Positions 28,487-50,218 of a stretch of DNA of 51,390 nt are shown here, in pieces (within the stretch, counting starts at the first letter, position 1; each line of letters opens with the position of its first letter). The position numbers and the translations under genes are program-made. Source of the stretch: Candidatus Woesearchaeota archaeon (GTDB lineage Archaea > Nanobdellota > Nanobdellia > UBA10117); the NCBI GenBank assembly GCA_964619325.1, contig CAZUEL010000001.1:10168-61557 (forward strand), given 5' to 3'. The notes beneath the pieces were generated by a model. It worked only from the letters and a program-made list of their open reading frames with translations. It was not told the DNA's origin and ran no database searches.

Positions 28487-31400
28487 TTAAGAGTTTTGAA
28501 TATCCTGCAGCTGTCCACGTATCCATGCAAGCCATTGGTCTAGTGTTTCCTTATCCATCTGCCCACCCTCCCAACTGTGAACCGCCCAATCGCGGATGGC
28601 GTACAAATGCTCTCTCGTATATGGCTCTTGCGACTCTCGAGTTGCTGTCGCCTCGACTTCTTGCACATCTGCCTCCGGCGGTGGCACATCTTGGTGCTCT
28701 GTCATTGGCTGGGCAGCCAACTGCGGCCAGCCTGCCCGTAGCTCGCTCTGTTGCCAGGCCTGCGGCTGTGGTGAATACACCAACGGACCTGGTGGCGACC
28801 ATTGCTCCCTCTGAGGCCATGCAAACTGCTGCTGTTTTCTCTTCCTGCGGCCATATTCATAAACTCCAAGGCCGGCTGCGCCACCCCCGCCAACAAGTCC
28901 ACCTAATATTAGTGCAAGCGGCAGCTCCTGTTTGTTATTGTTCGGCTTCTTTGCGGTTGCTTCAATATACGCGCGCTCGAATTCATCGCCTGTTATTATT
29001 GGTTTAATGTTAAATGCAACGGGCTTAGCATTAACCCTATCAATAAATACATTCAATGCGCTGGCGCTTCCGTTCGCGACTAAATTCCAGTTGGGTGTTA
29101 CTTCTATGACTTCACCCTGCTTTATTGGAATATCATCCAAAGTAAAGTTCGCAAACCGGCCATTTGTCTGCCCCATTAAGTAACCGCGTAAGTCAAAAGT
29201 CCCATTCGCCGTACCAACCAGCTTGACTTTTGGTTCCACCGGCAAACTAGATGCGATCAGTGCAAAGTGGCTGTCAACTGCGGATCGCGGAATCTCTCGA
29301 CTAGTAGTATTAGACACTTTGCCGTCGAGCTGTAGGGACATATCTGCGGGGCTACCAAGCTCAAAGAGGACTGCATATGCATTAGATAATGTCTTTGTTA
29401 GTATAGAATCTGGATTTCTGTATTCTGGCAACAACCATGGCGCGACAGGTGGCGGGCTAGTAATATTAGCAATTCCATGCAGCCCATTGGCTTTGTATTC
29501 GCCATTAAGGTTAACATCTCCATTATTTATTATTGCACTTAAGTCCACTAACGCGGTGTTGCCGCGATTCAAGACCAAACCCCGGCCATCCCTCCAGACT
29601 GGCGCAGCTGGATTTATGTCGAAGCCGAGCTCGCCCGAACGCCACTGGCCTGCCGCAACAAGTTCTGAAACATTGCTAACATCTTTCTGCTGCCAGACAG
29701 AGTCCCACAATGGAATTGCATGGTCGCGGACCGCAAAGTGGAATGGCTTGCCCGTACTCTTATTCACCCAAACCGCAGAAACCAGCCAGTCATGTTCGTG
29801 ATAGAATGAATCTTCAAACTTACCATAGCCAGAATTTTCAGTTCTATAATAAAAATACATGAACACTTGATGGTCTTGGTAATCCGCCACGTGGGTAAAC
29901 ACCGGATATGCACCATTTAATTTGAATTTCTCCTTGCCTCCGGTGTAGTTATAAAATCGATCAAAGTTAAACGCATTGTTCGTAACATCATTGTCATCGC
30001 CCTGGCCAGCCACCACTCTCGGTAGTGCTGGGTTATGGAACGCAACACTTTGTGTCTCAGGCCGACTGTCAAACTTTATCGTCGGCATAAAATTTGCTAT
30101 GAGTACATCCAGGCCGCTGTCAAGGCCTTTAAAATTGCCAAAGCGCAATCTTTCGGGTTCAGTCCAGGCAACCATATTTTTATTTAATTTAAAACCATCG
30201 CTGCCGTAGCAACCAACATAGTTTGAAAGCATTGTTGCATTACCATTACGCACTAATACTTCGTCAGTACAAGCTCGATAAATTATGTATGTGCTAGCCT
30301 CAAGCGGGAGAAATTCTGTGAGGTCGCGTTCGATCACTCTACTTCTACCAGTTGTTGTATCCAAATGAATGAGTGAATTATTTCTCATTGCTAAAATGTT
30401 ACTGCCTTCGAAAAACGGAACGTTCTTAGCATCTAGTGGATTATAAACTAAATCAATATTTGCCACAAGTTGTCCATTAAGCATGTCTAAAACCGAGAGC
30501 GAATTAATCACATCGTAGGCAACAATCGCCTTGCCTGCTTGTGTGTTAATAAATACACCATCGAATGCACCGCCGCTAATTGATACCGGTACTCCAAAAC
30601 GCGAGACCAGTTGGCCATCGAATTTTAGTAGCGTCAAATCCCGCTCGCTGCTCCCGTTATTTAGGCTGCCACCAAATATCAAATTACCTGCATTGTCATT
30701 GTAGCCCTGTAATGGTAATTTAACTTTTTTAATTGGTAATCCGGTGACAAATACACTATCTCGCCTGAATAAGTTGACCCCCTGTGGGAGCGGTACGTTC
30801 GCCTTCCACGTTCTACTTGAAAAGTCATACGTTGCTAACCCGCCAATGGCTTGTCCAGGCGATACATTTGCAAATAGGATTGTATCACGCCACTGGGCTA
30901 TTGGGTCATATCTGGCATCTGTTTCCAAAAGTCTGCTGCCATTATTATCGAATAAATATCTCATTTCGCCAGCCGGTGTTTCTGCAGCCACAACAAAACC
31001 ATCATCAAAGAATCTCAAAACCTTGCCACAGGTGTTATCTAGAATGAGACTGGTCTTTAAAGAATTTAGAGTAATTCTTTTCAACAGCGTGGCATCACTG
31101 CCGTTCCACTTTGCGCAATAAACTAAATTGCTACCATCTGCGCCGAACAAGTCTTTAGCGTCTGAGATTGACGTAATAAGACTGCCATTCACACCGTATA
31201 CAAATATACGTCCAAGCCCAAGCGTTGAAACTGCAACGAAATTATCCCCAAGCTCAACTTTTGCATTGCCTTGATCTATTGGCACGGTATGAACCGAATG
31301 TAGCGCCGCATTAAAATCCCCTGCAACATCGCTGGCGTTCTTTCCCTCTGGCCAGCTAACCTCGGCTGCTGCGCCCCAGTCAGATCCATCACCAAGAATA

Positions 31401-32114: not shown

Positions 32115-32122
32115 TTTATAAA
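32115..32122. promoter_or_regulatory. Palindromic TATA box shared by the divergent giant-protein and pilin-like genes
   Basis: TTTATAAA is centred about 26 nt from ATG 32092 (minus strand). On the plus strand it lies about 27 nt upstream of the AGAGG-ATG region at 32146-32157. Confidence 0.5.
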
Positions 32123-32154: not shown

Positions 32155-32634
32155 ATGATGGCCACGAAAGGACAGGGCTTGCCACTAAACTTAATAGTTT
32201 TAGCAATAATTGCAGCGCTAGTTTTAGTGCTGGTAATCGCATTCACTGTTGGTGGCGGTGGCGCAGCATTCAGCAGGATTTTCAAGGTCGGCTCGACGGC
32301 AGTCGGAGAGGATATCGACTCTGTCCGAGCAGTATGCAGGAATGCATGTTCAAATGCAGAGCTAAGTGTACAAAGTGCACCACAGTGGCCGAGCGCGGAG
32401 TACTGCAAAAAGGGGTTTAACATAGACAGAAACGGCGATGGGAAGATTGAAGATACGGTTGCCGGCGGCGCGACAACAAAAGAACGCAGCATAAGGTGTT
32501 GGGACGAGCCAGTGTCGGTTAGTTGCCAGTTTTCAACCACCGGAACAACCTCGCTATTAGTGAAAAGCCCGGATACAATACTTACAAAGGTTGACAAATC
32601 AAAGTGTGATACCGAAGACGTGACTGCAAGCTAA
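32155..32634 (+). CDS. Pilin-like protein with class III signal peptide and EF-hand-like loop
   Basis: MMATKGQ-GLPLNLIVLAIIAALVLVLVIAF. Cys pairs CRNAC...YC. DRNGDGKIEDTV loop (32425-32460), then RCWDEPVSVSC. Confidence 0.7.
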   Translation: MMATKGQGLPLNLIVLAIIAALVLVLVIAFTVGGGGAAFSRIFKVGSTAVGEDIDSVRAVCRNACSNAELSVQSAPQWPSAEYCKKGFNIDRNGDGKIEDTVAGGATTKERSIRCWDEPVSVSCQFSTTGTTSLLVKSPDTILTKVDKSKCDTEDVTAS

Positions 32635-32635
32635 A

Positions 32636-33031
32636 ATGAAGCGTGGTGTTATAACATTTGATGTTATTGTGTATGCCATAATTGCAATTGTTCTGTTAGC
32701 AGTTGTTCTATTTTTCATTTCCGGTCCCGTAAGTGCGAGTTTCAAGCAGGCAAAGGCAGCTTCGGAGCCTACAGAAGGCGATGTAGTTGCTGCACAAAGC
32801 AGGTGCAACCAATACTGCCTGCAAGCCGGCAGTTTAAGCAATTCGGAATTCTGGCAGCGCTCGTCCTACTGTACAATAACCTCTGCATTTGATAAAAATA
32901 AAGATGGGCGAATTTCAGCAGACGAAAAAATTAATTGCTGGCAAGCACCAATACTAGTGGACTGCTCGACTAAGATAAGTGGAATATCTGTCGATCAAAA
33001 TAGCTGTCAACCGGCTGTTGTTGTTCCTTAA
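32636..33031 (+). CDS. Pilin-like protein with class III signal peptide and canonical EF-hand loop (paralog of previous)
   Basis: MKRG-VITFDVIVYAIIAIVLLAVV. CNQYC...YC. DKNKDGRISADE (32891-32926) fits D-x-N-x-D-G-x-I-x-x-x-E. Followed by NCWQAPILVDC. Confidence 0.7.
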   Translation: MKRGVITFDVIVYAIIAIVLLAVVLFFISGPVSASFKQAKAASEPTEGDVVAAQSRCNQYCLQAGSLSNSEFWQRSSYCTITSAFDKNKDGRISADEKINCWQAPILVDCSTKISGISVDQNSCQPAVVVP

Positions 33032-33078: not shown

Positions 33079-34482
33079 TTAGGTGGTAGGGTTCAAGAAT
33101 GACATTACAAGTTCTTCCGTATCAAAAATTAAGCCTATCTGCGCGGTGGAAGAGTCCGCTGGCGTAGCAAGCAGATATGCAACGTGCCAGGCATCGCCAT
33201 CTTTGATCTCTGGAGCCACGAGGCCCTTTAACCAAAGTTGATTTGAGTAACCACAGCGTGGCTGGCAGGCCCCCGGATCGGTACACTCATTATTCTCTAG
33301 CGTACTGCATAGGTTTGTCTGTTCCATAACTCGCGTAATGTCTGCTTCAGTTATTTTTAAATCACCAATGTTTTCTATCTTTGCTTTGAAACACGCGTGA
33401 TTCGAATGTGCGCGGGCGTTGTCTTCTGCGCCTGCACCGTAAGTTAACCAACAATCTGCAGCAAGATTCGCAAGCTGTGCTGCCCCGCAAGAAACCCTAT
33501 CGCCCTCATCCGCCGCTTGCGTATTTGATGCTACGGGAGTAGTTTCCCCAACTAGTTGTGGCATAGAACTTTGCGCCCGTAATTGTGAGCTGGGCTTCCA
33601 GCCATAACTACCATCAGGATCGCAGGCAGACCAGTCACTGGCGCTGATCGTTACCTCGGTCTCACTATCTTCTGTAGCCTTGGCTCTGCTCGCAAAAGTT
33701 GATATCACTTCAACTGAGTCCGCGGGTAAATTACCTAAATCACAGCCGAAATCATTTATCAAAACAGCATCCTCCCAGCTCGCCCGTTCGTCAAAACACA
33801 TGACGTTATATTTTGACCTAACTACGTTTGGCCAAATCAGTGAGATTGGGCCATTATCTTTAGTATGAACATTTCCACGCCATACGACATTCTCAGAATT
33901 ACCGCAATATATTGGACAGCTGCCCCATGGATCTGTTATAGTACCTGACCCGCCACAATACTTATTGTTGAATCGGCTCGCTTCAGTACAATAACCAAGT
34001 GTATCCATGCCCTTAGTAAAATCAAGTTCCGAGAATTCTCGATTAGCCAACCCTTTGATCGCAAACGAGAAGCATGGGTACTTACCAGTTTCGTGGGCAC
34101 TAAGCTTCCATGTATCTTCACCATACATATAAAAGCACGTTTTTGCTAACTGTGCAATCTGTATTTTCGCACAATTGAATTTATCTTTGTTTTTTTTCAA
34201 ACTGAGAGCTTCATCCGGGTCACATTTCTTCCATGCGCCCGCGTCTATATCTAAAGATTGCGCGTGGCAGAATAGATTTACGACCGCCCACTTTGTTCCA
34301 ACAGGTGCCTGATTTTTGACGTGCATATTAAACCGACATAAATCAGTCAGCGATTGAGATATGCCTGGGCCGCCAACCGCTTCTGCGATCGGCGCAAAAA
34401 CACTAATTATTAGTACACCAACAACTATCGCTACTATTATAACTGCGAGCAGCGTGGTGGTTATACCTTTCCTTGACATCAT
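33079..34482 (-). CDS. Large Cys-rich pilin-like protein (class III signal peptide, internal duplication)
   Basis: MMSRKG-ITTTLLAVIIVAIVVGVLII. About 20 Cys by hand count. Two related modules (LAKTCFYMYGE...CFSFAIKGL... and LAADCWLTYGA...CFKAKIENI...). Confidence 0.7.
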   Translation of the reverse strand: MMSRKGITTTLLAVIIVAIVVGVLIISVFAPIAEAVGGPGISQSLTDLCRFNMHVKNQAPVGTKWAVVNLFCHAQSLDIDAGAWKKCDPDEALSLKKNKDKFNCAKIQIAQLAKTCFYMYGEDTWKLSAHETGKYPCFSFAIKGLANREFSELDFTKGMDTLGYCTEASRFNNKYCGGSGTITDPWGSCPIYCGNSENVVWRGNVHTKDNGPISLIWPNVVRSKYNVMCFDERASWEDAVLINDFGCDLGNLPADSVEVISTFASRAKATEDSETEVTISASDWSACDPDGSYGWKPSSQLRAQSSMPQLVGETTPVASNTQAADEGDRVSCGAAQLANLAADCWLTYGAGAEDNARAHSNHACFKAKIENIGDLKITEADITRVMEQTNLCSTLENNECTDPGACQPRCGYSNQLWLKGLVAPEIKDGDAWHVAYLLATPADSSTAQIGLIFDTEELVMSFLNPTT

Positions 34483-35165
34483 CTGCCTGAGGCCTCCTTA
34501 AAGTTTTTGTAATTGTCACATGTTACTGCTATTTTAATGTTTGCGCCGCCTGCTGCCATGAGCGAAGGCACATCGACAATATCCCAACAAGAATCTGCTA
34601 TTTTCTTTCCGTTTTCGGTTCTACCAGAACATATTTTATTTTCGCCAAAGCAAAATAATTTTCCGCCGGTATTTGTGCATTCTAGACCAGTTGCATCCAC
34701 CTGTCCCGGTGTGGCAATTCGTTCCTTCTGACCTATCCCTGACACTTGAATGTTTCGTGCAGAGCCCAAAATCTCAATCTGATTTTGCGAAACTATTGTC
34801 TGGAAATCATATGCGGGCGGTAAGTCTACTATGTGCATACCCGTGCTCAGGTTCACGCCCAAGAACTGGCGCATATTTGATGTTAGCTTTGCATCAAATT
34901 CCTCTTTATTCAAGGTTGAAAAGCAGCCTGCGGGCCGCGAGTCATCAAGCGCACTGTATGCCGCATACTTCACAGCATTTTCTAGGTATGCTCTTGCGCC
35001 TTCAAGTTCGTAGTAGCTTTTCAGTGCCATTGATTGTTTTAATCCAATGCTTGCGGTAAATTCGAAGTCACTGGCCTGCTTGCCGCCAAGCAATGCAATC
35101 ACACCGATTATTACTAGCAGCTCTATGAAGGCGAGCTGTCCCTTTCTGTTTCTTAAATCAAACAT
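34479..35165 (-). CDS. Pilin-like protein (class III signal peptide, KGQ type)
   Basis: MFDLRNRKGQ-LAFIELLVIIGVIALLGG. ATG 35165 lies 1 nt after the upstream stop. Its stop overlaps the next ATG (ATGATG/TGA). Confidence 0.7.
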   Translation of the reverse strand: MFDLRNRKGQLAFIELLVIIGVIALLGGKQASDFEFTASIGLKQSMALKSYYELEGARAYLENAVKYAAYSALDDSRPAGCFSTLNKEEFDAKLTSNMRQFLGVNLSTGMHIVDLPPAYDFQTIVSQNQIEILGSARNIQVSGIGQKERIATPGQVDATGLECTNTGGKLFCFGENKICSGRTENGKKIADSCWDIVDVPSLMAAGGANIKIAVTCDNYKNFKEASGR

Positions 35166-35166
35166 C

Positions 35167-35730
35167 TTAGTGCTCCAACGCCAATTCAATGCTTATTGGC
35201 AATTCTGGCTCACGCGATGGAACCGTTTTTGAACAAATATCGAGCTCGGATGCTTTTTCCAGCGTACCAAATATGCGCGGCGCCCCAATGTCTTTTACAG
35301 TTATGCGCCACTGGCTTGGGGAATTATCCCATCTCCGGTAGTTATTATTCATAAAGACGGTTGTGGCGTCTTCGAACTTTTTTGCATACGCGGGATTATC
35401 TGATGCGATTGCAAGCAATTCTGCAAACGTAAATGTTCTCTCAAAAGATGACTGCGCGGCTGTGATGCCGTGGAGGCTCGGTAGGCTTTGCGTATCACCG
35501 TCTAATACAGCACCAGAATCTGCGCGCAGGAAATTTATCAGGCCAATATCACACACTCGCGATACAGATACTTCCTCTATTTTTGCTTTTATGCTAATAT
35601 CTGAACTAGCATGATTGAAAACTGTGAGGGCCAGCCCAATTATTAGTAACACTATTACAACACCAATTATCTCCGGAATATGTTCTGCAAACACGCCGCC
35701 GCGCTTGTTTAGTTTAAACACACCTATCAC
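35167..35730 (-). CDS. Pilin-like protein (class III signal peptide)
   Basis: (GTG start) IGVFKLNKRGG-VFAEHIPEIIGVVIVLLIIGLAL. Overlaps the upstream gene by 17 nt. Confidence 0.65.
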   Translation of the reverse strand: MIGVFKLNKRGGVFAEHIPEIIGVVIVLLIIGLALTVFNHASSDISIKAKIEEVSVSRVCDIGLINFLRADSGAVLDGDTQSLPSLHGITAAQSSFERTFTFAELLAIASDNPAYAKKFEDATTVFMNNNYRRWDNSPSQWRITVKDIGAPRIFGTLEKASELDICSKTVPSREPELPISIELALEH

Positions 35731-36280
35731 CCTCTGACATATTTATTGCAATTTTTATACGCCCATCGCTAAACTTTCCATTTTCAAAGAATTTTACTAT
35801 GTATGTTTCTACAAACGAAGTTTTAAGATTTTGCAGGCCTATACTTGCCTTTTTATCACCTAACGCGCCATAGGCTTCAACCACAAACCTATCTGTTTCG
35901 AGACAGCTTCTTACTCTTGTTCCACCATCTGCAGAAGTAAGTTTAGCTAAATCAATTATGCCTGCGCGGACTTGGTGCTTTTGCGCTGAAGAAACGGCGG
36001 AATCAAACCAAGTTTTGCTGCCGTACAAAATATCGCCGCTTGGCAGGCCTCCAACCGGTTCTTCCCATGCCAGGCAAGTTGCAGAATTTATCACTCGCGC
36101 GGCGAGCAGCGTGAACTCGATATTTTTTGTGTGGCAGGTTTTTTCAACAGTAATGTTTTCAGCAAATCTATTCACACCCATTATCGCAGCCAACAATATC
36201 AGCATACATACGAATACATAAACAATGACCTGGTTTACTTCCGTCTCCTCCGACTGGCCTTTTTTTCCAACAAATATCAT
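35714..36280 (-). CDS. Pilin-like protein (class III signal peptide, KGQ type)
   Basis: MIFVGKKGQ-SEETEVNQVIVYVFVCMLILLAAIMG. Confidence 0.6.
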   Translation of the reverse strand: MIFVGKKGQSEETEVNQVIVYVFVCMLILLAAIMGVNRFAENITVEKTCHTKNIEFTLLAARVINSATCLAWEEPVGGLPSGDILYGSKTWFDSAVSSAQKHQVRAGIIDLAKLTSADGGTRVRSCLETDRFVVEAYGALGDKKASIGLQNLKTSFVETYIVKFFENGKFSDGRIKIAINMSEGDRCV

Positions 36281-36281
36281 T

Positions 36282-36914
36282 TTAATTAATTATAACTGGA
36301 TTTAATACGGCATAATTTTTTTCACTCCAGCAAGCATCACAATGTGCACGCATTATGAAAAGCGTGTTTGCCTGCGCCGCTTCGCCCTGCACGAAAACAT
36401 TTTCATCTTTGTTAAATTCTGTAATTGCCTTTCTAATTTTCACACCAGCAACTTCCGCACTGCACTCGCCCTGCGCGCCACTAACATAACAAGCATTGTA
36501 CTGTAACATATCACTGCCAATCGCGTACGCGCCATATATTGGAATAACAAACTTCATCGATGTGCCAAACGTTTCCCAAAAACCCTGCTTTTCCAGCGAA
36601 ACGCCTTCTGCAGTCCCCCGCATAAAATTAACCTTGCCAAAGTACGCGATAGTTTTACGTGGCCCGCCGATACCTACCTGTTGGTATATGCTTTTTCGCT
36701 CCTTGAACGCGGGTGCCTTTGCTGTCAAAACAACATCCTCTGGAGCTGCGAGAACTGTCATTCCAGTGAGCGCAAACTCTTTAGCAATTACTGCTGGCTC
36801 CTCCTTAATTATAAACGAAAAAATCTTCAGGCCGATGACAAGCGTCATTGCTATTATAATCATTACGCCGATCGCTAATATCAGGCTTGTTACGCCTGTT
36901 TTGTTATTTGTCAT
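36282..36914 (-). CDS. Pilin-like protein (class III signal peptide)
   Basis: MTNNKTG-VTSLILAIGVMIIIAMTLVIGL. 1-nt gap to the next gene. Confidence 0.65.
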   Translation of the reverse strand: MTNNKTGVTSLILAIGVMIIIAMTLVIGLKIFSFIIKEEPAVIAKEFALTGMTVLAAPEDVVLTAKAPAFKERKSIYQQVGIGGPRKTIAYFGKVNFMRGTAEGVSLEKQGFWETFGTSMKFVIPIYGAYAIGSDMLQYNACYVSGAQGECSAEVAGVKIRKAITEFNKDENVFVQGEAAQANTLFIMRAHCDACWSEKNYAVLNPVIIN

Positions 36915-37222
36915 TGGTATAGCAGCTTGCTAAGCACTGCCCAGAGTACGATAATAAAAATTGTGAGCAGTACGAGGCCAATTATTGTCATGACGGCTGG
37001 GTCCATGCCATGCTTGTTTTTCTTGAATAGTCTACCGAGCGGCGCAAACGCAAGCGGTGCGATTAGTGGCACCTTCTCTTTTAACTGCGCAGAACGATCT
37101 TTCCAGATAGAGTAACCGAAATAAGCAATTAAGGCAAACGCAGCTAGTGTTATCACTAAGTAAAATAATATTCTTCCGGTTTCCCACTGTCCTTTTCTAT
37201 TGTTTTTGCCAATTTTTTCCAT
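36911..37222 (-). CDS. Small two-helix membrane protein with KGQ-type N-terminus
   Basis: MEKIGKNNRKGQ-WETGRILFYLVITLAAFALIAY plus a second C-terminal helix. 4-nt overlap with the downstream gene. Confidence 0.55.
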   Translation of the reverse strand: MEKIGKNNRKGQWETGRILFYLVITLAAFALIAYFGYSIWKDRSAQLKEKVPLIAPLAFAPLGRLFKKNKHGMDPAVMTIIGLVLLTIFIIVLWAVLSKLLYQ

Positions 37223-37238
37223 TTTTCACCTCACTACA

Positions 37239-38039
37239 CTAAGTAACGTAATGGCACTCATACGTACAGTAAACCTGACCTGTTTGTGCAGACATGCCTG
37301 TCGATCCTGAATTAACCATGCATGGGCCAATCTCCCCTCGTTTGTGTTCTGTGAGAATCGGCTGGCCAGACAACGTGCTAGTAACTTCTGTAATATCACT
37401 TGCAAACTTACTTGGTCCGCACTCGATTCTTCGAGGCCGGCCTGCGGAATCAACTAAATAATTATTTTCTTCATCTAATTCTTCAACGCCACTTGTGCAC
37501 GCGCGGGGCGTAAACATGAATTTAGCCGGGCATGTCCACAGCCTCGCAACGAATGGAACTGAGCTGCGTTCGTTTGCTTCTATGTCAGTTGGTGGCGCCG
37601 GGTAAAAATCAAAATTATCTTCGCCCCCGTACGTGCTAAACGACGCGCCATTCCAATATGCAATCTGCGAGTTTTCGCCGCAAACAGCAACATCTGCGCC
37701 GGAAATACCAGACTCGCCAACATTAGAGACAACTGCTTGCGATTCCATCACGCCATCGCTCATGACACTGCCGCCACTAGCGCTTTCGGGATCGCCTATT
37801 TTAGGTGACCTACAACTTGCTCTTAGTGGAAAGCTGTCGAGTTTAATATCTGGCAGGTCCCGCGTTTGTATTAAATACGCGCGCCGCGATTCCTTGAATG
37901 CCTTGTTCTCTATGATGTCTTTGGACTTTTTTGTAAGGCCAGCTTGCACGCTCCCCACTATCCACAGAGAGACTGCCAGCACAATCAATATGACAAGTAT
38001 GAACATCACTATCGAGATGCCCCCTTTCCTCGTAGCCAT
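37239..38039 (-). CDS. Pilin-like protein (class III signal peptide) with CARDB-like end motif
   Basis: MATRKGG-ISIVMFILVILIVLAVSLWIVG. VEELDEENNY motif. ATG 38039 is about 26 nt from the TATA at 38062-38069 (leaderless). Confidence 0.7.
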   Translation of the reverse strand: MATRKGGISIVMFILVILIVLAVSLWIVGSVQAGLTKKSKDIIENKAFKESRRAYLIQTRDLPDIKLDSFPLRASCRSPKIGDPESASGGSVMSDGVMESQAVVSNVGESGISGADVAVCGENSQIAYWNGASFSTYGGEDNFDFYPAPPTDIEANERSSVPFVARLWTCPAKFMFTPRACTSGVEELDEENNYLVDSAGRPRRIECGPSKFASDITEVTSTLSGQPILTEHKRGEIGPCMVNSGSTGMSAQTGQVYCTYECHYVT

Positions 38040-39332: not shown

Positions 39333-39354
39333 AGTTCGGAGTTATGGTGGCAAC

Positions 39355-41132: not shown

Positions 41133-41287
41133 CCAAACCCCTTTATCGGCCTGCCAGCTAGCGCCTGCAGGCCACCGCCTTTTACTAACACCAGCCAGCC
41201 GACCAACAATGCGGCTATTATTATTATCAACACCGTTGCCAAAACCAATAGGGCAAAATTGCTTGTTGCAGCGCTTTCGTCAGTCAT
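41129..41287 (-). CDS. Tiny single-helix protein (52 aa)
   Basis: Hand-translated MTDESAATSNFALLVLATVLIIIIAALLVGWLVLVKGGGLQALAGRPIKGFG. Overlapping start/stop with both neighbours. Confidence 0.45.
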   Translation of the reverse strand: MTDESAATSNFALLVLATVLIIIIAALLVGWLVLVKGGGLQALAGRPIKGFG

Positions 41288-41388
41288 GTTAGCGTTACCA
41301 CCGTCAATGCTATTGCTATCGCGACCAAGATTGCAATGATTGCGATCACGCTTCTAACTATCCAAAGCTTCCATGCGGTTTCTGCCAT
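41284..41388 (-). CDS. Tiny single-helix protein (34 aa)
   Basis: Hand-translated MAETAWKLWIVRSVIAIIAILVAIAIALTVVTLT. ATGA overlap with the next tiny ORF. Starts 5 nt after the platform-gene stop. Confidence 0.4.
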   Translation of the reverse strand: MAETAWKLWIVRSVIAIIAILVAIAIALTVVTLT

Positions 41389-41393: not shown

Positions 41394-43502
41394 CTACTCG
41401 AACTTAAGTTGTGTTATTGGGCCGACCAGTGCACCAAGCAGCAGCGATATGAGTACAGCAGCGATTACATAAAATGGCGTCGCCATCAGGAAGTTTTTTG
41501 CCATGCTATCCTTCTGCTCTATCTCATCGTGGCCATATATTATGCCGGATAATAGGAATGTTAGTATATAAATTATTTCTATTATGTAAATGCCAACAAC
41601 AAACTGGAAAATAAACTGCGGCACCATCGAATCTATTTGAAAGATATCAATTAGGCCAGAGCCGCCGGCACCGCTCAGTGCAGAACTTGTATCTGAGCCT
41701 GGCAGTTGCGTGCTAAACGTTTTGATTTGCCTGCTCAGGTTTATCATTATCGTTGTTGTCAACGAGGCTAAGCCGACGACGATCGCAGATATGAGCGGCA
41801 CAAATACCTTTACTTGAGAAATCATCGATGAAACTGTTTCTGTGAGAAGATCCTGAAGCCGCCTGCTCACCCGCTGCACTGTTTCTAGATATTCTGAAAT
41901 TGTTAACATAGCGCGGCCTGCAATTACTGGGCCTTTCTTGGCGCTTTCAACAAAAAGCGAGAGCGTGCTCTTGATTATTGCACTTGGGTAAAATGTTACC
42001 GCGCCGTACTGCTTGTTGAAAATTGCTTCCTTGAGACTTGCACCGAGGCTTGTCATATTGTATGCAATCGCTTTAAACATCTTGGAAATTTCTGAGGCCT
42101 GCATGGTTTCTGAAAGTGTTATTATAACTTTCTCTGGCGGCTGGTGCTGCTCCAGTTTTTCGCCAAGTTGGAATACCGCTGCGGAAAACTCGCCCTCCAT
42201 TTTTTCTATATCTTTCTTGACTTGTATTATGTGCCTAACCGCCCACCAGTAATACGCCCCGAAACCGAGGCCGAGCCCCAACACAAAATCCAGGCTGAAG
42301 AGCAGTGCCCTTGTGGAGTATAATTCTGCTACAAACCCCTCGCCAACCAAGCTAAACATGTACGGGAAATAAATGAACGCCGGCAGCGATAATAATACAA
42401 ACACTAAAATACCAACAAACCATGCAGGCATCGTAATCTCAGTACCAAATAGATTTACGGTCGGTGTTTTGTATTTCTGCTGGATGTATTTGTAAACATC
42501 GCTTATATCTGAACCGGCCGGCCTGGTAGCCAGGACAGACCTGCCTATTGCGTAAACAATTATTGGAAGCAGCACGTTGTAAAACAGTGCGACGTAATAC
42601 CACTTAACAGATTCGCCCATGAACGCGCTTATCATAGGCAGCATTACAAGGCCCATGACAGGCAGGACAACACCAAGCATGTGCAGTGCCTCCATTGGGC
42701 CCTGCAGCTGGTGTGCATAATCCAGCATATGATTCTGCGTACCATCAAGAATTATTTTAATAGAATTATCAAGCAATTCACGTTTTCTTCGTATATCGGG
42801 CTCCGAAAGAGATGACTTAATTAGGTGTATAGACTCTATGAATTCATCATCCCAGCCACGCCACGTTACTATGTACTCCTCAAGCGCATCTTCTATCGTG
42901 CTATATTTTTTGGTGTCTATATCCCATAATATTTTCATAAAATCCAATGAGAGGGGCGGGCCCATATGCTCTGCAACAAATTTTATCGCCCGTTCTAAAT
43001 TCGGCGTATGTTGCATATAGATTACTATGTATAGCACTGCGAGAACAAGCTGGTCAGACGTACGCGCGCGCCATGATGCTAAAATCAATTTTGGTATTGA
43101 TGGCACGTAGAGGAGGCCAATAATTGTTATAACGAGCCCAACTGCTATCACGTACACATTCCTTAAAGCCAATGATAACGCGCCTGATATCACAACGGAT
43201 GCTATTGCCAGCAAGTATGCAAGTGCATAAACATTTTGCGGAGTTGTTTCCAGGTGGGCGAGCTTCATATCGCCAAAGAGCTTATAGTACTCACCCTCTG
43301 CTACCTGAATCCGCAGGATGCCGCCAGCCCAGTTACACAAGCGCTCAAAGAGAAGGTGGCTCTTGCCTATCTGCTCCTGTTTAAATATTTCGTACTCACG
43401 TGAGTAGCTTGCTTCTGTTTCCTGCGCGTACTCCTGATAGCCCACAAGCTCTCTTTCTATCTTCCGCTTATACTCTGATACGAGCTGGTGATCAATCGCC
43501 AT
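41394..43502 (-). CDS. Polytopic membrane protein in FlaJ/TadC/PilC (platform) position
   Basis: 702 aa with about 9-10 hydrophobic helices separating two helical soluble regions. Lies two genes downstream of the secretion ATPase. The assignment rests on architecture and context only. Confidence 0.6.
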   Translation of the reverse strand: MAIDHQLVSEYKRKIERELVGYQEYAQETEASYSREYEIFKQEQIGKSHLLFERLCNWAGGILRIQVAEGEYYKLFGDMKLAHLETTPQNVYALAYLLAIASVVISGALSLALRNVYVIAVGLVITIIGLLYVPSIPKLILASWRARTSDQLVLAVLYIVIYMQHTPNLERAIKFVAEHMGPPLSLDFMKILWDIDTKKYSTIEDALEEYIVTWRGWDDEFIESIHLIKSSLSEPDIRRKRELLDNSIKIILDGTQNHMLDYAHQLQGPMEALHMLGVVLPVMGLVMLPMISAFMGESVKWYYVALFYNVLLPIIVYAIGRSVLATRPAGSDISDVYKYIQQKYKTPTVNLFGTEITMPAWFVGILVFVLLSLPAFIYFPYMFSLVGEGFVAELYSTRALLFSLDFVLGLGLGFGAYYWWAVRHIIQVKKDIEKMEGEFSAAVFQLGEKLEQHQPPEKVIITLSETMQASEISKMFKAIAYNMTSLGASLKEAIFNKQYGAVTFYPSAIIKSTLSLFVESAKKGPVIAGRAMLTISEYLETVQRVSRRLQDLLTETVSSMISQVKVFVPLISAIVVGLASLTTTIMINLSRQIKTFSTQLPGSDTSSALSGAGGSGLIDIFQIDSMVPQFIFQFVVGIYIIEIIYILTFLLSGIIYGHDEIEQKDSMAKNFLMATPFYVIAAVLISLLLGALVGPITQLKFE

Positions 43503-43676: not shown

Positions 43677-43713
43677 GGTTACTGTTAGTTACTTTTAGTA
43701 ACTTTTGGTTACT
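43677..43713 (-). promoter_or_regulatory. Four heptamer repeats at exact 10-bp phasing (putative RHH operator)
   Basis: GGTTACT (43677-83), AGTTACT (43687-93), AGTAACT (43697-703), GGTTACT (43707-13). The central pair forms a palindrome. The array fills the 43-nt gap between the ATPase stop and the RHH start. Confidence 0.6.
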
Positions 43714-43718
43714 TGTTT

Positions 43719-45998
43719 TTAAATCTTGCCTTTCTTCACTTGCTGCTTAAACCAGTCATTCCAGGCTGCGAACACCCTATCTGAGTCTGTAGTGCCAACT
43801 TCTTCCGAGACTGCTTGGGAAATCTTATGGAATTCCTCATTTGACGCTACGACAAACTGCGCCTCGAGTATATCCGGATTGCCGGTCTTGCCTGCTGCCT
43901 CAACAACTGCTTCTTTTATCTTTGCCCGCAATTCGATATTTTTCCAGATTGCATCCCAGTTGCCTGCCCACTCTTTAACTCTTCCCCCGATAGCCTTTAT
44001 AATTTCAGACTCGCCTTCGGTAAGGACTTCCGTTGGTTCAATCCGATCTAATTTTACATCATAATTCATAAGGTCTGCAAATCCTTTTTCTTGCAAGGGA
44101 TCTTCTGTCCAGTGCTTCCTTACTTCCGCAATCTGGACTAATCTTTTGGACTGCTGCAGTCCGCTTGGAGAGGTTATTGGATTTGCAACTGCAATAATAT
44201 CCGTCGCTTTGAAACTCGTTTTCGGAACGCCCAAATCATTTACCACACGATCGAAGACCGAATATGGCGAATCACCATGGATTGTACCTGCCACAACCTT
44301 TGCGAGCGCGCCGACACGCATCGCTTCATAGAGCGCGAGCGCTTCCTTACTTCTTACCTCACCAACGATTAATGCAGAATCCCCCAACCGAAGCGCGGTG
44401 CGAATGCCTTGCTCTGCTGGCACCTCAGATTCTGTCGGTGTTATTACCGAACGCACTTTCATTGACTGCACATCATAGCCCAGTCTTCTAAGTTGGTCAA
44501 CTGGAAGCTCAAGCGTATCCTCAACAGTTAAGATTCTGTTCGAGCGCATTATTTCAACTAATAGCGAGCCTAGTAGCGATGTTTTTCCTGCACTTCTGGT
44601 TCCCGCGATTAAGATTGTTCGCGCGCCATCAATCAAAAACGAAAACAGGCCTGCTGCGAGCGGTGTTAGCATGCCTGCCTTTATGAACAACGGCAGCGTC
44701 CAAGGTTTATCGCGATGTCTTCTGAATGCATATGCCAGACCACTTGGTGAAAGGGGCTGCTGGATTACTGCGACTCGCGCCCTGCCCGCAGGCACGATGA
44801 GCTCTGAATCAAGAACTGGGTTTGCTTCATCCAATGGCCTGCCGGACATCAGCCTGAGTTTAGTTGCCCATGACTGGCCTTCCTTATATGTTGGTGTTAT
44901 GTTTGTCCTGCACTCGCCATAAACCGCATGCATAACAGAAATTGGTGCCTGCCCGATCGGCGCATTAACCACTATATCTTGTATGTTTGTATCAGAGAGC
45001 AAAACTTCTATTAAGCCAAAGCCAAGCGTGTAGCGAAGCAGTATTTTTGCGAGCTTGTCTATATCTATATAATTTAATTTAACGCCACGCGCGTTCGCGA
45101 TATCTTTCAAAAGGTCGCGGCCGATGCTAAGAAATGTCTGTCGCGTTCTTGTCAGATTTAGATAATCTGTTTTTTGTGGCTGATGCTCCTCCAGCACCTG
45201 TCTTGCTTCGATCAACAACTCGTACAGATCTTCTGAAAGGTTAAACTCTTCTGGTGCCACGTGATAGAGCAGCCGCAAATCGTGCGGCATCTTCAGTATG
45301 AGCACTTGAGCATTATCAGACAATGTGTATTTGTCTAGCTCCTCCGCACCTGCGGGGTATGATGTTACTAGTTTGGTGTACATGAAAAATGGCCTGACCT
45401 GTACTTTTAGCAGCCGCTTGTAAACATCCCTGCTTCCTGTCTTGTAGCCATCCAACTCTGGGCTTGCAAGCTGTATCAACTTGCACCCATCTAACAAATC
45501 AATAATATGCCTCAATAGAATTGTGTACGTGCCCGCGCACTGCGCATAATTTGGCATAGGCTCCTTGCTTTGTTTTGCAAGTTCCTCGCGCAGTTGCCGC
45601 TTGACCATTACGTATGCACCAATCGGGTCGCTCTTCAGATTTCCAATCACTGCTTCCTGAAGAAAGGCATGCCAGCCACCAACAAAGCGCTCACACTCCG
45701 TTCCAAATAAGCCAGAGAAGTCAAGAATATTTTCTTCACGCACGAGCTTGCCATACACATCTTTGATCTCAAGCAGCATGTTGACTTGGGTTTCATCGTA
45801 TAGGTATTCCTCGCGCTGTATAAACGCAATTCTATTTACACGGCCAGCCTCGAGCAAAAGATCGATAACAAACGCCATTGTCTGCGGGTCGTCTTCTATT
45901 GAAGGTGAATATATTGAGTCTTCATAGTTGATTTTTAATGTACGTAAGCCGCCCTCGTGCACAATTTTGTACTCTGGCGGCGCATTGTCTGTGGCCAT
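43719..45998 (-). CDS. FlaI/VirB11/GspE-type secretion (type IV pilus-like) ATPase
   Basis: Walker A AGTRSAGKTS, Asp box ILTVEDTLEL, Walker B ALIVGEVRSKEA, His box AGTIHGDSPYS. Long N-terminal domain, 759 aa. ATG lies about 26 nt from the palindromic TATA ATTTAAAT. Confidence 0.9.
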   Translation of the reverse strand: MATDNAPPEYKIVHEGGLRTLKINYEDSIYSPSIEDDPQTMAFVIDLLLEAGRVNRIAFIQREEYLYDETQVNMLLEIKDVYGKLVREENILDFSGLFGTECERFVGGWHAFLQEAVIGNLKSDPIGAYVMVKRQLREELAKQSKEPMPNYAQCAGTYTILLRHIIDLLDGCKLIQLASPELDGYKTGSRDVYKRLLKVQVRPFFMYTKLVTSYPAGAEELDKYTLSDNAQVLILKMPHDLRLLYHVAPEEFNLSEDLYELLIEARQVLEEHQPQKTDYLNLTRTRQTFLSIGRDLLKDIANARGVKLNYIDIDKLAKILLRYTLGFGLIEVLLSDTNIQDIVVNAPIGQAPISVMHAVYGECRTNITPTYKEGQSWATKLRLMSGRPLDEANPVLDSELIVPAGRARVAVIQQPLSPSGLAYAFRRHRDKPWTLPLFIKAGMLTPLAAGLFSFLIDGARTILIAGTRSAGKTSLLGSLLVEIMRSNRILTVEDTLELPVDQLRRLGYDVQSMKVRSVITPTESEVPAEQGIRTALRLGDSALIVGEVRSKEALALYEAMRVGALAKVVAGTIHGDSPYSVFDRVVNDLGVPKTSFKATDIIAVANPITSPSGLQQSKRLVQIAEVRKHWTEDPLQEKGFADLMNYDVKLDRIEPTEVLTEGESEIIKAIGGRVKEWAGNWDAIWKNIELRAKIKEAVVEAAGKTGNPDILEAQFVVASNEEFHKISQAVSEEVGTTDSDRVFAAWNDWFKQQVKKGKI

Positions 45999-46080: not shown

Positions 46081-46593
46081 ATGGCCCTTTTCAGTCCAAC
46101 ACAATCCCAGCAGCAGAGCCCATCCTACCCACCCGCAGGCATGTCTGCTTACCCTGCCCAGCAATTTCCGCAGCAGGGATTTTTCCAGCAGGGCCCGCCA
46201 AAGGAACTGGTGAATCTCCAACATGATGTTAAAACACAGGTTTCAGGCATTTCAGCAAGAATGAAACTAGTGGAGAATCACATCGATACTCTGCGCTCAC
46301 ACATTGACCTTCTGGACAACTCGCTGATAGAGAAACACAAGGCGATTGTTGAGGAAGTCCGTTCGGTTGAGTATTCTGTGCGAGGACTGCGTGCAGACAT
46401 TGATATGGTAAAAGATTTGACGGAGCGAATCGCAAAGAGATTGGAGGAGCTTGCCTCCCGCGAGCAGGTTAAGATTCTCGAAAGATACGTGAGCTTATGG
46501 CAGCCGCTGAACTTCGTGACGCGTTCAGAGGTTGAAACAGTTGTGAAAAACATACTCGCCGATGTGGGTGTGAAAATAAAGGAGAAAGAATAG
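46081..46593 (+). CDS. Q/P-rich N-terminus plus coiled-coil protein
   Basis: Start taken at ATG 46081, about 24 nt after TTTATAT. The track ATG at 46027 lies inside the TATA motif. SPTQSQQQSPSYPPAG...QQGFFQQGPP, then heptad-rich sequence ending ILERYVSLWQPLNFV. Confidence 0.6.
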   Translation: MALFSPTQSQQQSPSYPPAGMSAYPAQQFPQQGFFQQGPPKELVNLQHDVKTQVSGISARMKLVENHIDTLRSHIDLLDNSLIEKHKAIVEEVRSVEYSVRGLRADIDMVKDLTERIAKRLEELASREQVKILERYVSLWQPLNFVTRSEVETVVKNILADVGVKIKEKE

Positions 46594-46602
46594 ATTTTTA
46601 AA

Positions 46603-47340
46603 ATGGCAAACCAAAAGAGAGCTAGTGAGGTAAGAATGCCACAACAATCACCGCCACAACCACCGCCCGGCATGCCAGCACTGCCGCCGCCTATGTTTGT
46701 GCCCCAGACATTAAAGATACCAAACAGCCCGCTCATCATCCAGCACCCTGGCCTGCCGCCGCTGGAATCGAGAATGGCAGAGCTGAAGGCCGCAGGCCTC
46801 AGGGACTCAGAAGTAAGGCGGCAGATGTTAAGCGAGGGCTATTCGTCACAGGACTTGTTGACTTATTTTCAAACGCAGCAGTTTGCGCCGACGCAAGGGC
46901 CAACGGAGATGCCAATGATGCAGGGCATGCCAATGGCGCTGCCACCACCACCGCCACGCTACGAGCAGGAGGGCAGGAAGGAGGATGTCATAACTTTACT
47001 TACAGAAGATATTCAGGAAATTTCTGAGGCAATAATTGCAGAGAAGTGGGGCCAGGCAAAAAAGGAGATCGAGGCGATGGCAAACTGGAGAGAAGACGCA
47101 GAGTCAAAGATGTCTGGCATGCAAGACCAGCTCAAGGCGCTCGAGGCAAAAATGGATTCACTGGAGAAGGCAATTTTTGGAAAGGTTGAAGAATACTCGC
47201 GCGGCATATCTGATGTGAACGCTGAACTGAAAGCGATGCAGCGCGTCTTTTCTACGGTGATGCCAACCTTCACGGCGAATATTAAAGAGTTACAGGGATT
47301 AGTAGAAGACACCAAAGAAAAGAAGAAAAGTAAAAAGTAG
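46603..47340 (+). CDS. Pro-rich N-terminus plus coiled-coil protein
   Basis: MPQQSPPQPPPGMPALPPPMF..., then a second P-rich stretch ALPPPPPRYE. Coiled coil follows, ending MQRVFSTVMPTFTANIKEL and a K-rich tail. Confidence 0.6.
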   Translation: MANQKRASEVRMPQQSPPQPPPGMPALPPPMFVPQTLKIPNSPLIIQHPGLPPLESRMAELKAAGLRDSEVRRQMLSEGYSSQDLLTYFQTQQFAPTQGPTEMPMMQGMPMALPPPPPRYEQEGRKEDVITLLTEDIQEISEAIIAEKWGQAKKEIEAMANWREDAESKMSGMQDQLKALEAKMDSLEKAIFGKVEEYSRGISDVNAELKAMQRVFSTVMPTFTANIKELQGLVEDTKEKKKSKK

Positions 47341-48625: not shown

Positions 48626-48676
48626 ATCTTACCTCGAATAATATTAACGGGATTGGTATATAAAGATTGTGATTTA

Positions 48677-48853
48677 CTAGTTCTCGCCGCCTAACTCTCT
48701 TATCCTGTCGCTGATGCGCCCCAAGTTGTCTTCCATGCGTCTGATCTGCCTGTCAAGTTCATCTCTCGAGCTCTTCAAGCGCTTAATCGCTTTTTCTACG
48801 TCAAGCTTTTGATTTTTTAAACCGATAATTGCATCTTCAATGCGTGAGCCCAT
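48677..48853 (-). CDS. Small coiled-coil protein (58 aa)
   Basis: Hand-translated MGSRIEDAIIGLKNQKLDVEKAIKRLKSSRDELDRQIRRMEDNLGRISDRIRELGGEN. Below the track cutoff. Confidence 0.4.
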   Translation of the reverse strand: MGSRIEDAIIGLKNQKLDVEKAIKRLKSSRDELDRQIRRMEDNLGRISDRIRELGGEN

Positions 48854-48931
48854 TTTACATCGCTAGAATAAATGCTGGCGTATTAATAAGGATTGCGGTT
48901 GTAAAGAAAATAAAGACTAAGAAAAAATAGA

Positions 48932-50218
48932 TTATGTGTGCGCAACACTTGCAATCTCGTGGTCAACTTTTCTAAGCAGTGTTTTGATTCTCTCTTGCAG
49001 CGCAATCTCTTTACCCAAAAAGTTGGCTGCTTTTTCCAACGCGGTAATTACTGTAGTGCGTACACCTGCCGTCCAGCCGCCTTGGTTTATTGCTACCCCA
49101 AGATTCTCGTATGCTGCAGTTAGATCTGCAAAGACTGCCTGCTCGTCTGTGGCCTGCTGGCCCGCGAGCTGCTCTATCTCTTGCAGTTCTGAATCTACTT
49201 GGCCATACACATGTCTATATGTGACCGCCATACCTGTAGTGGGCACGGACTTAAATACATTCAACTCGTGTCCTATTCGCGCCATCAAATCGCCCCTGAA
49301 GCGCCTCGCCATCTTCCACTTAGCAAATACTATGCGCAAGGTGCTATACGCGAGCCTCGCCGTAGCTAGCACGCCAGATGCGGGAGCCCATGTTCCTGTT
49401 GCAGGTATTTTCTTGGCTAAACTAACTGCCTTTCGGACATAAGTTGTAGCACTTTCGGTATCACCTAACTCTGACTGTATGTCTCTAAACGCACCACCGA
49501 GGTCATGCAACGCCTCTACTGAGAGATTTTCAGACAGTTTACCAAGCACCCTTGCCCGCGTGCGCCTGAATATAAGTGCTAAACCGATTGCAATTAATGG
49601 TATTCCAAGCCAGACGGTTCCAAAAAATGTTTCTGTGCCAGCACTTACGCCACCAATGCTATAAAAGGTTGGCAAAACCACTACTGAGATAACTCCGGCA
49701 AGAATGAATCCAATGCCTCGCCATCTCCAATTCCACGGCGGATCGTTCCCTGAAAGTTTCCACGACATTGCTATTACCGTAATTGGGACTGCATACGTTA
49801 TTGCGAGACTAATTGCGGTTCCGACTGATGTTGCTAGGTATAATATTGGCGCGGATGGAACGTACCTCATCGCAAAGATTGCCAGCACAAACGCGACCAA
49901 CCCTGCTGCGCCTTTGTTCTCTTTCAAAAAATCTATCCGCAAGACTAACAAAGCAAACAACGTTACTAACAGCGTCCAAATTAAAAATCTGAGCGGCAAA
50001 ACGGAAGATGGCTCGGCAGGATTATAGCCAACCAACAGCTGCATTGCCGGGACGATATACGCAGATAAATCTGGGAACGGTGGAAGATTTATTGGTGCTG
50101 GTTGCTCTAACTCTACAGCAAGTGTTGCAACGGCAGAACTCGCTAATCCAAGCGCGGCTAAGCCAGATGTTTTTATGAAATCTTTTAAGGCCATTTTGTT
50201 TTTGCAACGCGAAAACAA
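48932..50218 (-). CDS. Membrane protein with C-terminal helical cytoplasmic domain
   Basis: 428 aa. N-terminal half has about 6-7 hydrophobic helices. C-terminal ~190 aa is helical and charged. Preceded by a hairpin-rich leader. Confidence 0.55.
   Translation of the reverse strand: MFSRCKNKMALKDFIKTSGLAALGLASSAVATLAVELEQPAPINLPPFPDLSAYIVPAMQLLVGYNPAEPSSVLPLRFLIWTLLVTLFALLVLRIDFLKENKGAAGLVAFVLAIFAMRYVPSAPILYLATSVGTAISLAITYAVPITVIAMSWKLSGNDPPWNWRWRGIGFILAGVISVVVLPTFYSIGGVSAGTETFFGTVWLGIPLIAIGLALIFRRTRARVLGKLSENLSVEALHDLGGAFRDIQSELGDTESATTYVRKAVSLAKKIPATGTWAPASGVLATARLAYSTLRIVFAKWKMARRFRGDLMARIGHELNVFKSVPTTGMAVTYRHVYGQVDSELQEIEQLAGQQATDEQAVFADLTAAYENLGVAINQGGWTAGVRTTVITALEKAANFLGKEIALQERIKTLLRKVDHEIASVAHT

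Follow-up and report, generated by a model that had tools for sequence, protein, structure and literature searches.

The means by which DPANN archaea find their hosts and hold on to them are an open question, and to our knowledge the Woesearchaeota have no cultured representative. Here we ask what kind of machine is encoded at positions 28487-50218 of a 51,390-nucleotide (nt) stretch of DNA from a Candidatus Woesearchaeota archaeon (contig CAZUEL010000001.1; the whole stretch is referred to as the window), a locus that an earlier note, made from the sequence alone, had described as type-IV-pilus-like. The gene positions given in that note for this region were borne out. The DNA belongs to a DPANN archaeon, the matches to the ATPase of the locus being of the Woesearchaeota/Nanoarchaeia type. 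Our analysis reveals a secretion ATPase, a platform protein of the T2SSF type and many pilin candidates with class-III-like leaders (Table 1), in agreement with a type-IV-filament-type locus, and it is probable that the locus encodes a lineage-specific type IV filament (TFF) machine of Woesearchaeota/Nanoarchaeia-type DPANN. Mechanistically it lies within a known class; it is a widely conserved, lineage-specific and uncharacterised variant of archaeal type IV filament machinery.

The ATPase has a core at residues ~294-629, as delimited by alignment to Protein Data Bank (PDB) sequences, flanked by an N-terminal extension of ~290 amino acids (aa) and a C-terminal extension of ~130 aa, both conserved in its family. 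The four boxes of a FlaI/VirB11-type enzyme are intact, as the earlier note had claimed, with Walker A at residue 466, the Asp box at 489, Walker B at 542 and the His box at 569; family and boxes together are those of the ATPases of the TFF superfamily (PilB/FlaI/TadA family). The NCBIfam models for TadA (E = 1e-33) and FlaI (2.7e-33) both match far under their equivalog cut-offs (for FlaI, 115 bits against 550), and the PDB matches include afGspE of Archaeoglobus (2oap, 4.8e-24), CpaF (3.8e-21) and FlaI (6e-17). Three ATPase orthologues (P0034, P0037 and P0055) are 1263-1267 aa long and contain intein and LAGLIDADG homing-endonuclease domains (PF14890, PF14528); judging by these domains, an intein has invaded the ATPase gene in some lineages.

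The polytopic 702-aa protein, which had been placed in the FlaJ/TadC position, has ~9 transmembrane (TM) segments. Searched directly against Pfam and NCBIfam it gave no match, and a profile of its family returned nothing useful from PDB sequences. By comparison, 7 of 35 full-length family members match PF00482 (best E = 4e-8; two, which are relatives at 29-38% identity, pass the Pfam threshold), with T2SSF repeats at ~148-280 and ~470-580. The AlphaFold2 model (predicted local distance difference test score (pLDDT) 80.7) matches the cytoplasmic domains of EpsF and OutF in Foldseek (probability 0.96-1.0, target-normalised TM 0.67-0.73) and a PilC model (probability 0.82). The T2SSF matches in relatives, the AlphaFold model and the fold matches together identify the protein as a fused, two-repeat platform of the FlaJ/TadC/PilC type; the T2SSF signature (PF00482) of TFF platforms is thus seen through full-length relatives and the model, the window protein alone being sub-threshold.

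Specific N-terminal features mark the genes downstream of the platform. Between 32.1 and 41.1 kb, 11 open reading frames (ORFs) begin with a short basic leader that ends in [K/R]-x0-1-G; a strongly hydrophobic helix comes directly after it or a few residues later, and Gln occupies position +1 in 5 of the 11. A twelfth ORF (38112+, 406 aa) has the helix without the basic-G leader, which its orthologues do carry. The clustering of these leaders is real, as judged from a six-frame rule ([KR][KRTSNQ]?[GA], then a 15-residue hydrophobic stretch, ATG starts only): over the whole window the rule gave 12 hits, comprising 10 annotated pilin-like starts and 2 false positives inside polytopic proteins, with zero hits in bases 1-32,000, as compared with a mean of 0.23 and a maximum of 2 in 40 shuffles. 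In five related loci, a [KR][KR]?[GA] leader is found on every pilin-like gene and on most of the very short ORFs (micro-ORFs) among them. The pilin-like proteins of the window contain 0-2 N-x-S/T sequons each, and their number of Cys is even (2-20) in all but one; in the 1212-aa neighbour protein, the counts are 18 sequons and 5 Cys. Since archaeal pilins that have been characterised are typically glycosylated, the scarcity of sequons is unusual.

Two paralogous small pilins with a QGLPL N-terminus are the best conserved of the pilin-like genes, with 52% identity to the related loci L002 and L005 as compared with 23-44% for the others. They are tandemly duplicated in relatives, as is typical of major pilins according to a 2016 census (PMC4858521). 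Column identity in the QGLPL family is 0.87 over the N-terminal segment QGLPLNLIVLAIIAALVLVLVIAFTVGG (residues 5-36) and 0.24-0.60 over the remainder, the pattern expected of a filament-core helix in filament-forming pilins, and for this strong helix conservation relative to the rest we propose the QGLPL pilin as the major subunit. Its AlphaFold2 model (pLDDT 72.8) shows a short helix at residues 11-31, a break rich in Gly and a small domain of the helix/loop kind. The family shares six invariant Cys and a loop, D-x-[DN]-x-[DS]-G-x-[ILV] (DxDxDG), with weak EF-hand matches, which suggests that the globular domain may be stabilised by disulfides and calcium.

The remaining pilin-like proteins are less conserved. 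The seven consecutive ones, of which the 103-aa one has a further TM helix at the C-terminal end, are predicted to be minor pilins or adhesins, and the order of their genes is the same in L002 and L005 (23-44% identity). The two genes at 38112-39627 are inverted in the window; in L002 their orthologues (363 and 306 aa) run in the same direction as the operon and have RKA or SRG leaders. The 452-454-aa protein encoded nearest to the platform gene is a candidate tip or adhesin subunit. It gave no match to PDB or Pfam, and PDB sequence searches likewise returned nothing for the 467-aa protein; the positional orthologues of the 452-454-aa protein in L002, L005 and L006 are 417-609 aa long, with faint or weak beta-propeller Pfam marks in L002 and L006.

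A putative regulator is also embedded in the locus. The 57-aa gene between the ATPase and platform genes, reported earlier as a ribbon-helix-helix (RHH) gene, is indeed present. Its protein alone has no significant family match; 10 of 17 members of its family match PF01402 RHH_1 (best E = 1.3e-3), and the top PDB match is CopG, which is weak (E = 0.22). Searched with a hidden Markov model (HMM) for this family, 46 of 87 loci have a single copy each, which always abuts the ATPase gene, upstream of it in most loci and downstream of it in the window and its closest relatives. In L089 (4786-5145) and L090 (4747-5151) a 23S_rRNA_IVP (four-helix-bundle) gene, absent from the window, lies between the ATPase and RHH genes. 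Four GTWACY half-sites with 10-bp spacing (43677-43712) end 1 nt before the RHH ATG, next to a TATA-like TTTAAAAA (43716-43723) that overlaps the stop codon of the ATPase gene. The pattern GTWACYN4GTWACY has six overlapping matches in the window, all at this array, as compared with 0.04 expected, and the array is kept upstream of the RHH orthologues in L004, L008, L088 and L090; in front of genes of the other RHH subfamily lie different palindromes, rich in A/T. The GTWACY array is probably the operator of the RHH protein. Its position with the TATA-like element before the RHH start suggests that the platform and pilin genes have an internal promoter under autoregulation, and the 57-aa protein is predicted to autoregulate this transcription unit.

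Our comparison of related loci reveals a conserved core. With the ATPase alignment as query (the platform alignment has no conserved stretch) and one genome per species, at least 555 species genomes were found to carry the ATPase at >50% identity; most of them bear the label Woesearchaeota, Nanoarchaeia, Nanoarchaeota or Pacearchaeota. Orthologues that match over the full length at 54-79% identity abound. Among the matches listed, ~20 of 80 carriers are labelled 'uncultured Methanosarcinales' and one contig 'Armatimonadota bacterium'; these, L015, L018, L021 and L056 among them, are probably taxonomic mislabels or mis-binned contigs. Neighbours were counted within 10 kb on both sides of the ATPase gene in 31 full loci (Table 1). 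The core consists of (RHH)-ATPase-platform, a pair of coiled-coil proteins and two or three five-TM paralogues. From these counts, the right-flank coiled-coil pair and paralogous membrane proteins, which the earlier note had included in the system, are core partners and among the most conserved ones, and the large divergent gene and the far-right genes, included as well, are neighbours only. In addition, pilin clusters adjoin the core in about one third of 32 loci (6-13 rule hits; one further locus has 4), in the order micro-ORF(s), a 417-609-aa protein, a micro-ORF, two or three QGLPL pilins and ~8 further pilin-like genes. A Hadarchaeum contig (L091, 4757-9512), the nearest relative outside DPANN encountered, encodes a 727-aa ATPase with 37% identity over the full length, including the N-terminal domain, and a 503-aa platform; small ORFs, helical or coiled-coil, lie upstream. 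The enlarged ATPase type is therefore not strictly confined to DPANN.

Among known systems, the locus shares with archaeal type IV pili (Archaeal-T4P; PMC6668835, with clades in PMC4858521) a FlaI/TadA-family ATPase, a platform that is one long protein with two T2SSF domains, several pilins that evolve fast and have class-III-type leaders, and a prepilin peptidase usually encoded elsewhere. The differences occur in the conserved extensions of the ATPase, in pilins that match no arCOG-derived Pfam family, and in the accessory set (RHH, two coiled-coil and two or three five-TM proteins), which goes unmentioned in the available portions of the 2016 census and of a 2026 MacSyFinder survey. The census (PMC4858521) left out Woesearchaeota. 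The Epd pilus of Methanococcus maripaludis (System 1) and its bacterial derivative, the Tad/Flp pilus, are also alike in their many-gene cluster, numerous minor pilins and the Gln +1 seen in five window pilins, in very short helix-only ORFs reminiscent of Flp/EpdE-type subunits, and in CpaF being among the best PDB matches of the ATPase; the 2026 survey lists DPANN among System 1 hosts (bioRxiv 10.64898/2026.04.22.720090). By comparison, Epd, System 1 and Tad are defined by two adjacent single-T2SSF platform genes and a secondary ATPase (PMC6668835; bioRxiv 10.64898/2026.04.22.720090), and the locus falls outside this definition because its platform is fused in one 702-aa gene. Furthermore, no FlaH/TadZ-like second ATPase or dedicated EppA-type peptidase occurs in the window or the related loci examined. 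As for a short major pilin without globular domain, the helix-only ORFs of 34-52 aa are conserved by position and in this window lack a class-III-type leader; similar ORFs of 46-59 aa in L004-L006 carry KKA or KKG.

Resemblance to bacterial type IVa pilus (T4aP) and type II secretion system (T2SS) minor-pilin/PilY1 tip complexes is by analogy only: ~8 minor pilin-like proteins whose order is fixed, a large protein, perhaps propeller-like, encoded after the platform gene, and a loop of the Ca-binding type in one pilin. Homology to these in sequence or fold was not demonstrated, and there is no secretin, PilM/N/O/P or retraction ATPase. From the Aap/Ups pili of Sulfolobales (4-5-gene operons with the accessory genes AapX and UpsX) the locus differs by size and content alone, with at least 20 genes. 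DPANN islands with FlaI, TadC and unrecognisable 'dark-matter' pilins were illustrated in 2019 by Makarova, Wolf and Koonin (PMC6393860, text to Fig. 2A), so that this kind of locus is already known in outline. The islands are alike in combining FlaI, TadC and surface proteins with many unannotatable small signal-peptide proteins read as divergent pilins; the portion of that text at hand gives one example, without analysis of a core, regulator/operator, micro-ORFs or distribution. With such islands outlined, the same architecture with 6-13 pilin-like genes in about one third of related loci and the core in at least 555 species, the descriptions 'oversized' and 'novel surface apparatus' are not supported.

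In the mechanism that we propose, the pilin-like proteins would be inserted into the membrane and their basic leader cut after Gly by an A24 prepilin peptidase encoded elsewhere. A hexameric ATPase docked on the platform would drive polymerisation of the pilins into a surface filament, in which the two small, best-conserved QGLPL pilins would form the shaft and the other seven to nine pilin-like proteins, including the large Cys-rich ones, a priming/tip complex with adhesive domains. The RHH protein would bind the GTWACY array, which lies between the TATA box and the start codon of the RHH gene, thereby autoregulating the platform and pilin genes, and a scaffold around the motor would consist of the coiled-coil and five-TM proteins; the two coiled-coil proteins are predicted to be scaffold or regulatory partners. 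The most likely role, and the least supported of these steps, would be contact with host cells or surfaces in an episymbiotic lifestyle; host attachment or uptake would be a reasonable function of the system. A bolder version, in which the core is a distinct TFF subtype near-universal in Woesearchaeota/Pacearchaeota-type DPANN and their principal host-contact organelle, the coiled-coil and five-TM proteins are a previously unknown motor scaffold, and the shaft is a disulfide/calcium-stabilised pilin of new fold, is speculative and in our view rather doubtful.

Several observations weigh against a type IV filament machine. No pilin-like protein matches Pfam or NCBIfam pilin, archaellin or class III families even at E <= 10, and a fold search of the QGLPL pilin model against PDB gave no match, so a pilin fold is unsupported. 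A strict FlaFind-type regular expression fits 1 of 13 proteins; the relaxed motif occurs on 11 ORFs, far above chance, and recurs in relatives, and the class III (prepilin-type) signals claimed earlier are putative. The three window micro-ORFs are without a basic-G leader. About two thirds of related loci have no pilin genes beside the core, and housekeeping genes follow the platform there. Furthermore, library scans and a screen for a GxGD-type motif plus at least four TM helices found no A24 peptidase in the window, as the earlier note had also observed, and the screen gave no candidate in the 10 kb on either side of the ATPase gene at 87 loci. The genes of archaeal prepilin peptidases commonly lie at other sites in the genome (PMC4858521), and flaI, flaJ and flaK are reported from most Woesearchaeota metagenome-assembled genomes (MAGs), with highly expressed 'archaellin type IV' genes (PMC11606122). 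If the 'pilins' were ordinary, uncleaved, N-terminally anchored surface proteins clustering beside an ATPase/platform pair with another substrate, the lack of both homology and fold match to pilins, the absence of the peptidase from the locus and the many related cores without adjacent pilin genes would all be accommodated. This is very unlikely in view of the [KR][GA] immediately before the helix on essentially every one of them in six independent loci, the very strong conservation of the QGLPL helix, the kept gene order and the coupling of translation to the platform gene.

The same ATPase and platform could instead build a short pseudopilus, serving as a piston for DNA uptake (competence-type) or for protein export or display (T2SS- or bindosome-type), which would suit a genome-reduced symbiont scavenging nucleotides and building blocks. 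Minor-pilin-like genes are many relative to major candidates, as in Com and T2SS systems, one pilin carries a bacterial-style G/xxxxE motif (MNKTG/ASLFE), and in the candidate major subunit the DxDxDG loop is reminiscent of the T2SS pseudopilin Ca site. In addition, binding proteins bearing class III signal peptides (SPIII) have been proposed on archaeal TFF machines (bioRxiv 10.64898/2026.04.22.720090). A pseudopilus is nevertheless unlikely: neither the locus nor related loci contain a ComEC-, DprA- or nuclease-like gene, a secreted-substrate gene or a substrate-binding-protein domain, and the large Cys-rich, CARDB-like and propeller-like pilins resemble adhesins. A divergent archaellum-like rotary motility organelle, with the coiled-coil and membrane proteins as a FlaC/D/E/X-type motor scaffold, would draw on the conserved cytoplasmic coiled-coil partners, which recall archaellar accessory proteins, and on the NCBIfam FlaI model scoring the ATPase about as well as the TadA model; fla genes are annotated and motility is discussed in Woesearchaeota MAG papers (PMC11606122). 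This reading is very improbable, and the earlier note was right to set the archaellum aside: the FlaI score is far below its cut-off, FlaH (KaiC-like), FlaF/FlaG and archaellin (PF01917) are absent from the Pfam/NCBIfam matches of all locus genes, none of them is marked on the called genes of the related loci examined, and large extra N- and C-terminal ATPase domains are tied to non-rotary systems in the 2026 survey (bioRxiv 10.64898/2026.04.22.720090).

A type IV filament machine in these archaea bears on published work. According to one groundwater study, type IV pilus components are 'missing in DPANN genomes'; the study used the presence of pili to assign imaged ultra-small cells to candidate phyla radiation (CPR) bacteria (bioRxiv 10.1101/2020.05.14.094862). 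On the gene evidence, the ATPase-platform core in DPANN contradicts this statement. MAGs named NC_groundwater_..._Ag carry the core (L008, L020, L037, L039, L041, L054 and L072), and L008 also has an adjacent pilin-like cluster. We take the 'NC_groundwater'/'Ag' MAGs to come from the agricultural site of the groundwater study; if they do, the pili-based assignment to CPR is unsafe. The core also supplies gene families apparently missing from current TFF classification models, and the ATPase, the platform, the RHH protein with its operator, the coiled-coil and five-TM proteins and the QGLPL pilin are concrete candidates for DPANN host contact.

Table 1. Features of the locus, in window coordinates. 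A slash follows the leader glycine; the last column gives the loci, among the 31 full loci, in which a homologue lies near the ATPase gene.
Feature	Position	Strand	Basis or detail	Loci
Neighbour protein, 1201/1212 aa	28487..32125	-	topology; TM helices 219-237 and 1068-1086	1/31
Two paralogous small pilins (158/159 and 131 aa), candidate major subunits	32155..33031	+	KG/QGLPLNLIVLA N-terminus	8/31 (QGLPL pilin)
Pilin-like N-terminus MATKG/QGLPLNLIVLA	32158	+	likely start	
Pilin-like N-terminus MKRG/VITFDVIV	32636	+	likely start	
Seven consecutive pilin-like genes (266, 103, 210, 188, 187, 228-236, 467 aa)	33079..38039	-	basic-G leaders on all; Gln +1 in three	
Pilin-like N-terminus MMSRKG/ITTTLLAV	34482	-	likely start	
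Pilin-like N-terminus MFDLRNRKG/QLAFIELLV	35165	-	likely start	
Pilin-like N-terminus ..KLNKRG/GVFAEHIPEIIGVV	35730	-	likely start	
Pilin-like N-terminus MIFVGKKG/QSEETEVNQVIVYV	36280	-	likely start	
Pilin-like N-terminus MTNNKTG/VTSLILAI	36914	-	likely start	
Pilin-like N-terminus ..NNRKG/QWETGRILFYLV	37222	-	likely start	
Pilin-like N-terminus MATRKG/GISIVMFIL	38039	-	likely start	
TATA-like CTTATAAA	38083-38090		sequence pattern, ahead of inverted 38112-39627 block	
Inverted two-gene block: 406-aa protein (38112-39332) and 90-aa pilin-like protein (39355-39627)	38112..39627	+	406 aa: 16 Cys, weak CARDB match; 90 aa: MNKTG/ASLFE, 8 Cys	
Pilin-like N-terminus MNKTG/ASLFEVLIAV	39355	+	likely start	
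Micro-ORF, 43 aa	39630..39761	-	single helix beginning directly at Met-Glu	
Large pilin-like protein, 452-454 aa	39768..41132	-	N-terminus (KRG leader); 12 Cys	
Pilin-like N-terminus MKFKLKRG/YMFPSWFGGLLLV	41126	-	likely start	
Micro-ORFs, 52 aa (41129-41287) and 34 aa (41284-41388)	41129..41388	-	single TM helix each, acidic N-terminus	
Platform, 702 aa, polytopic, FlaJ/TadC/PilC type, two T2SSF repeats in one gene	41394..43502	-	relatives and fold	30/31, next to ATPase
Small RHH-type protein, 57 aa	43502..43675	-	family HMM	
Promoter/operator-like site	43677..43723	-	TATA-like TTTAAAAA and four GTWACY half-sites	
Secretion ATPase, 759 aa, FlaI/TadA/CpaF family	43719..45998	-	PF00437, E = 8.5e-17	31/31
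Pair of cytoplasmic proteins, P/Q-rich at the N-terminus and coiled-coil at the C-terminus (~170 aa from 46081; 245 aa from 46603)	46081..47340	+	divergent from ATPase; 46081 start inferred from orthologue lengths and TATA-like site	24/31 and 26/31, always same position
Two paralogous five-TM proteins, 205 and 208 aa	47344..48625	-	conserved N-terminal motif G-F-F-x-V-x-L-P-F-L-L	14/31 and 25/31
58-aa coiled-coil ORF and 428-aa membrane protein	48677..50218	-	adjacent	0/31 and 2/31

The arrangement of the genes indicates several transcription units. The overlapping and abutting stop and start codons described earlier are as stated; the single long coupled operon deduced from them is not supported, given strand changes at 32.1, 33.05, 38.05, 39.63 and 46.0 kb and the internal promoter-like site before the RHH gene. 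A palindromic TTTATAAA lies at 32115-32122 between the ~1200-aa gene and the divergent pilin gene, where a shared palindromic TATA had been noted, and a second copy lies at 38062-38069. At both divergent junctions the palindrome is 23 nt 5' of the likely start codons, a distance that fits leaderless transcripts; its position implies that the 1212-aa ORF more likely begins at 32092 (1201 aa). The window differs from the gene order of its relatives only by two inversions, 38112-39627 and 32155-33031. Invertible switches were considered for these blocks and rejected, as flanking inverted repeats are absent beyond the similarity among pilin helix-coding regions.

The three single-helix micro-ORFs of the earlier note exist and are conserved in position in relatives. 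The stop and start codons of the 34- and 52-aa micro-ORFs overlap, and L089 and L090 have ORFs of 31-35 and 48-52 aa at the same site after the platform gene, sharing a weak C-terminal motif; position, length and hydrophobicity are thus kept in the closest relatives, and the sequences diverge. From the missing basic-G leader, the window micro-ORFs after the platform gene may be assembly factors rather than Flp-like subunits. The 43-aa micro-ORF has counterparts of 54-56 aa with similar N-termini at the same site in L002, L005 and L006.

On the right flank, the coiled-coil proteins have weak coiled-coil matches only in Pfam. The five-TM proteins form a narrow family, for which 334 representative clusters out of 1.84 billion match at E <= 1e-3; Pfam scans gave no consistent family for it, and L054 has three copies. 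The 1201/1212-aa protein gave no match in Pfam, NCBIfam or PDB and, judging from its predicted topology, is probably a surface protein. The 428-aa protein has no Pfam family, and its homologue in L002 lies 3.4 kb off with six genes between; it is doubtful whether the 58-aa ORF and the 428-aa protein belong to the system.

The window as a whole has a G+C content of ~45%, and tRNA and Rfam searches of it gave no match. An exact-protein look-up aimed past its edges returned a 3.9-kb contig of another assembly as its sole match. The left half of the window is housekeeping in character, with threonyl-tRNA synthetase, S-adenosyl-L-homocysteine hydrolase, TruD tRNA pseudouridine synthase and glycosyltransferases. 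At its far end, positions 1-4400 have a G+C content of 0.37 as compared with ~0.45 elsewhere, and among the small ORFs there are an apparent nucleotidyltransferase/HEPN-type pair, an apparent PLD-family gene and one for a 365-aa protein without a family match; this segment may be a foreign island.

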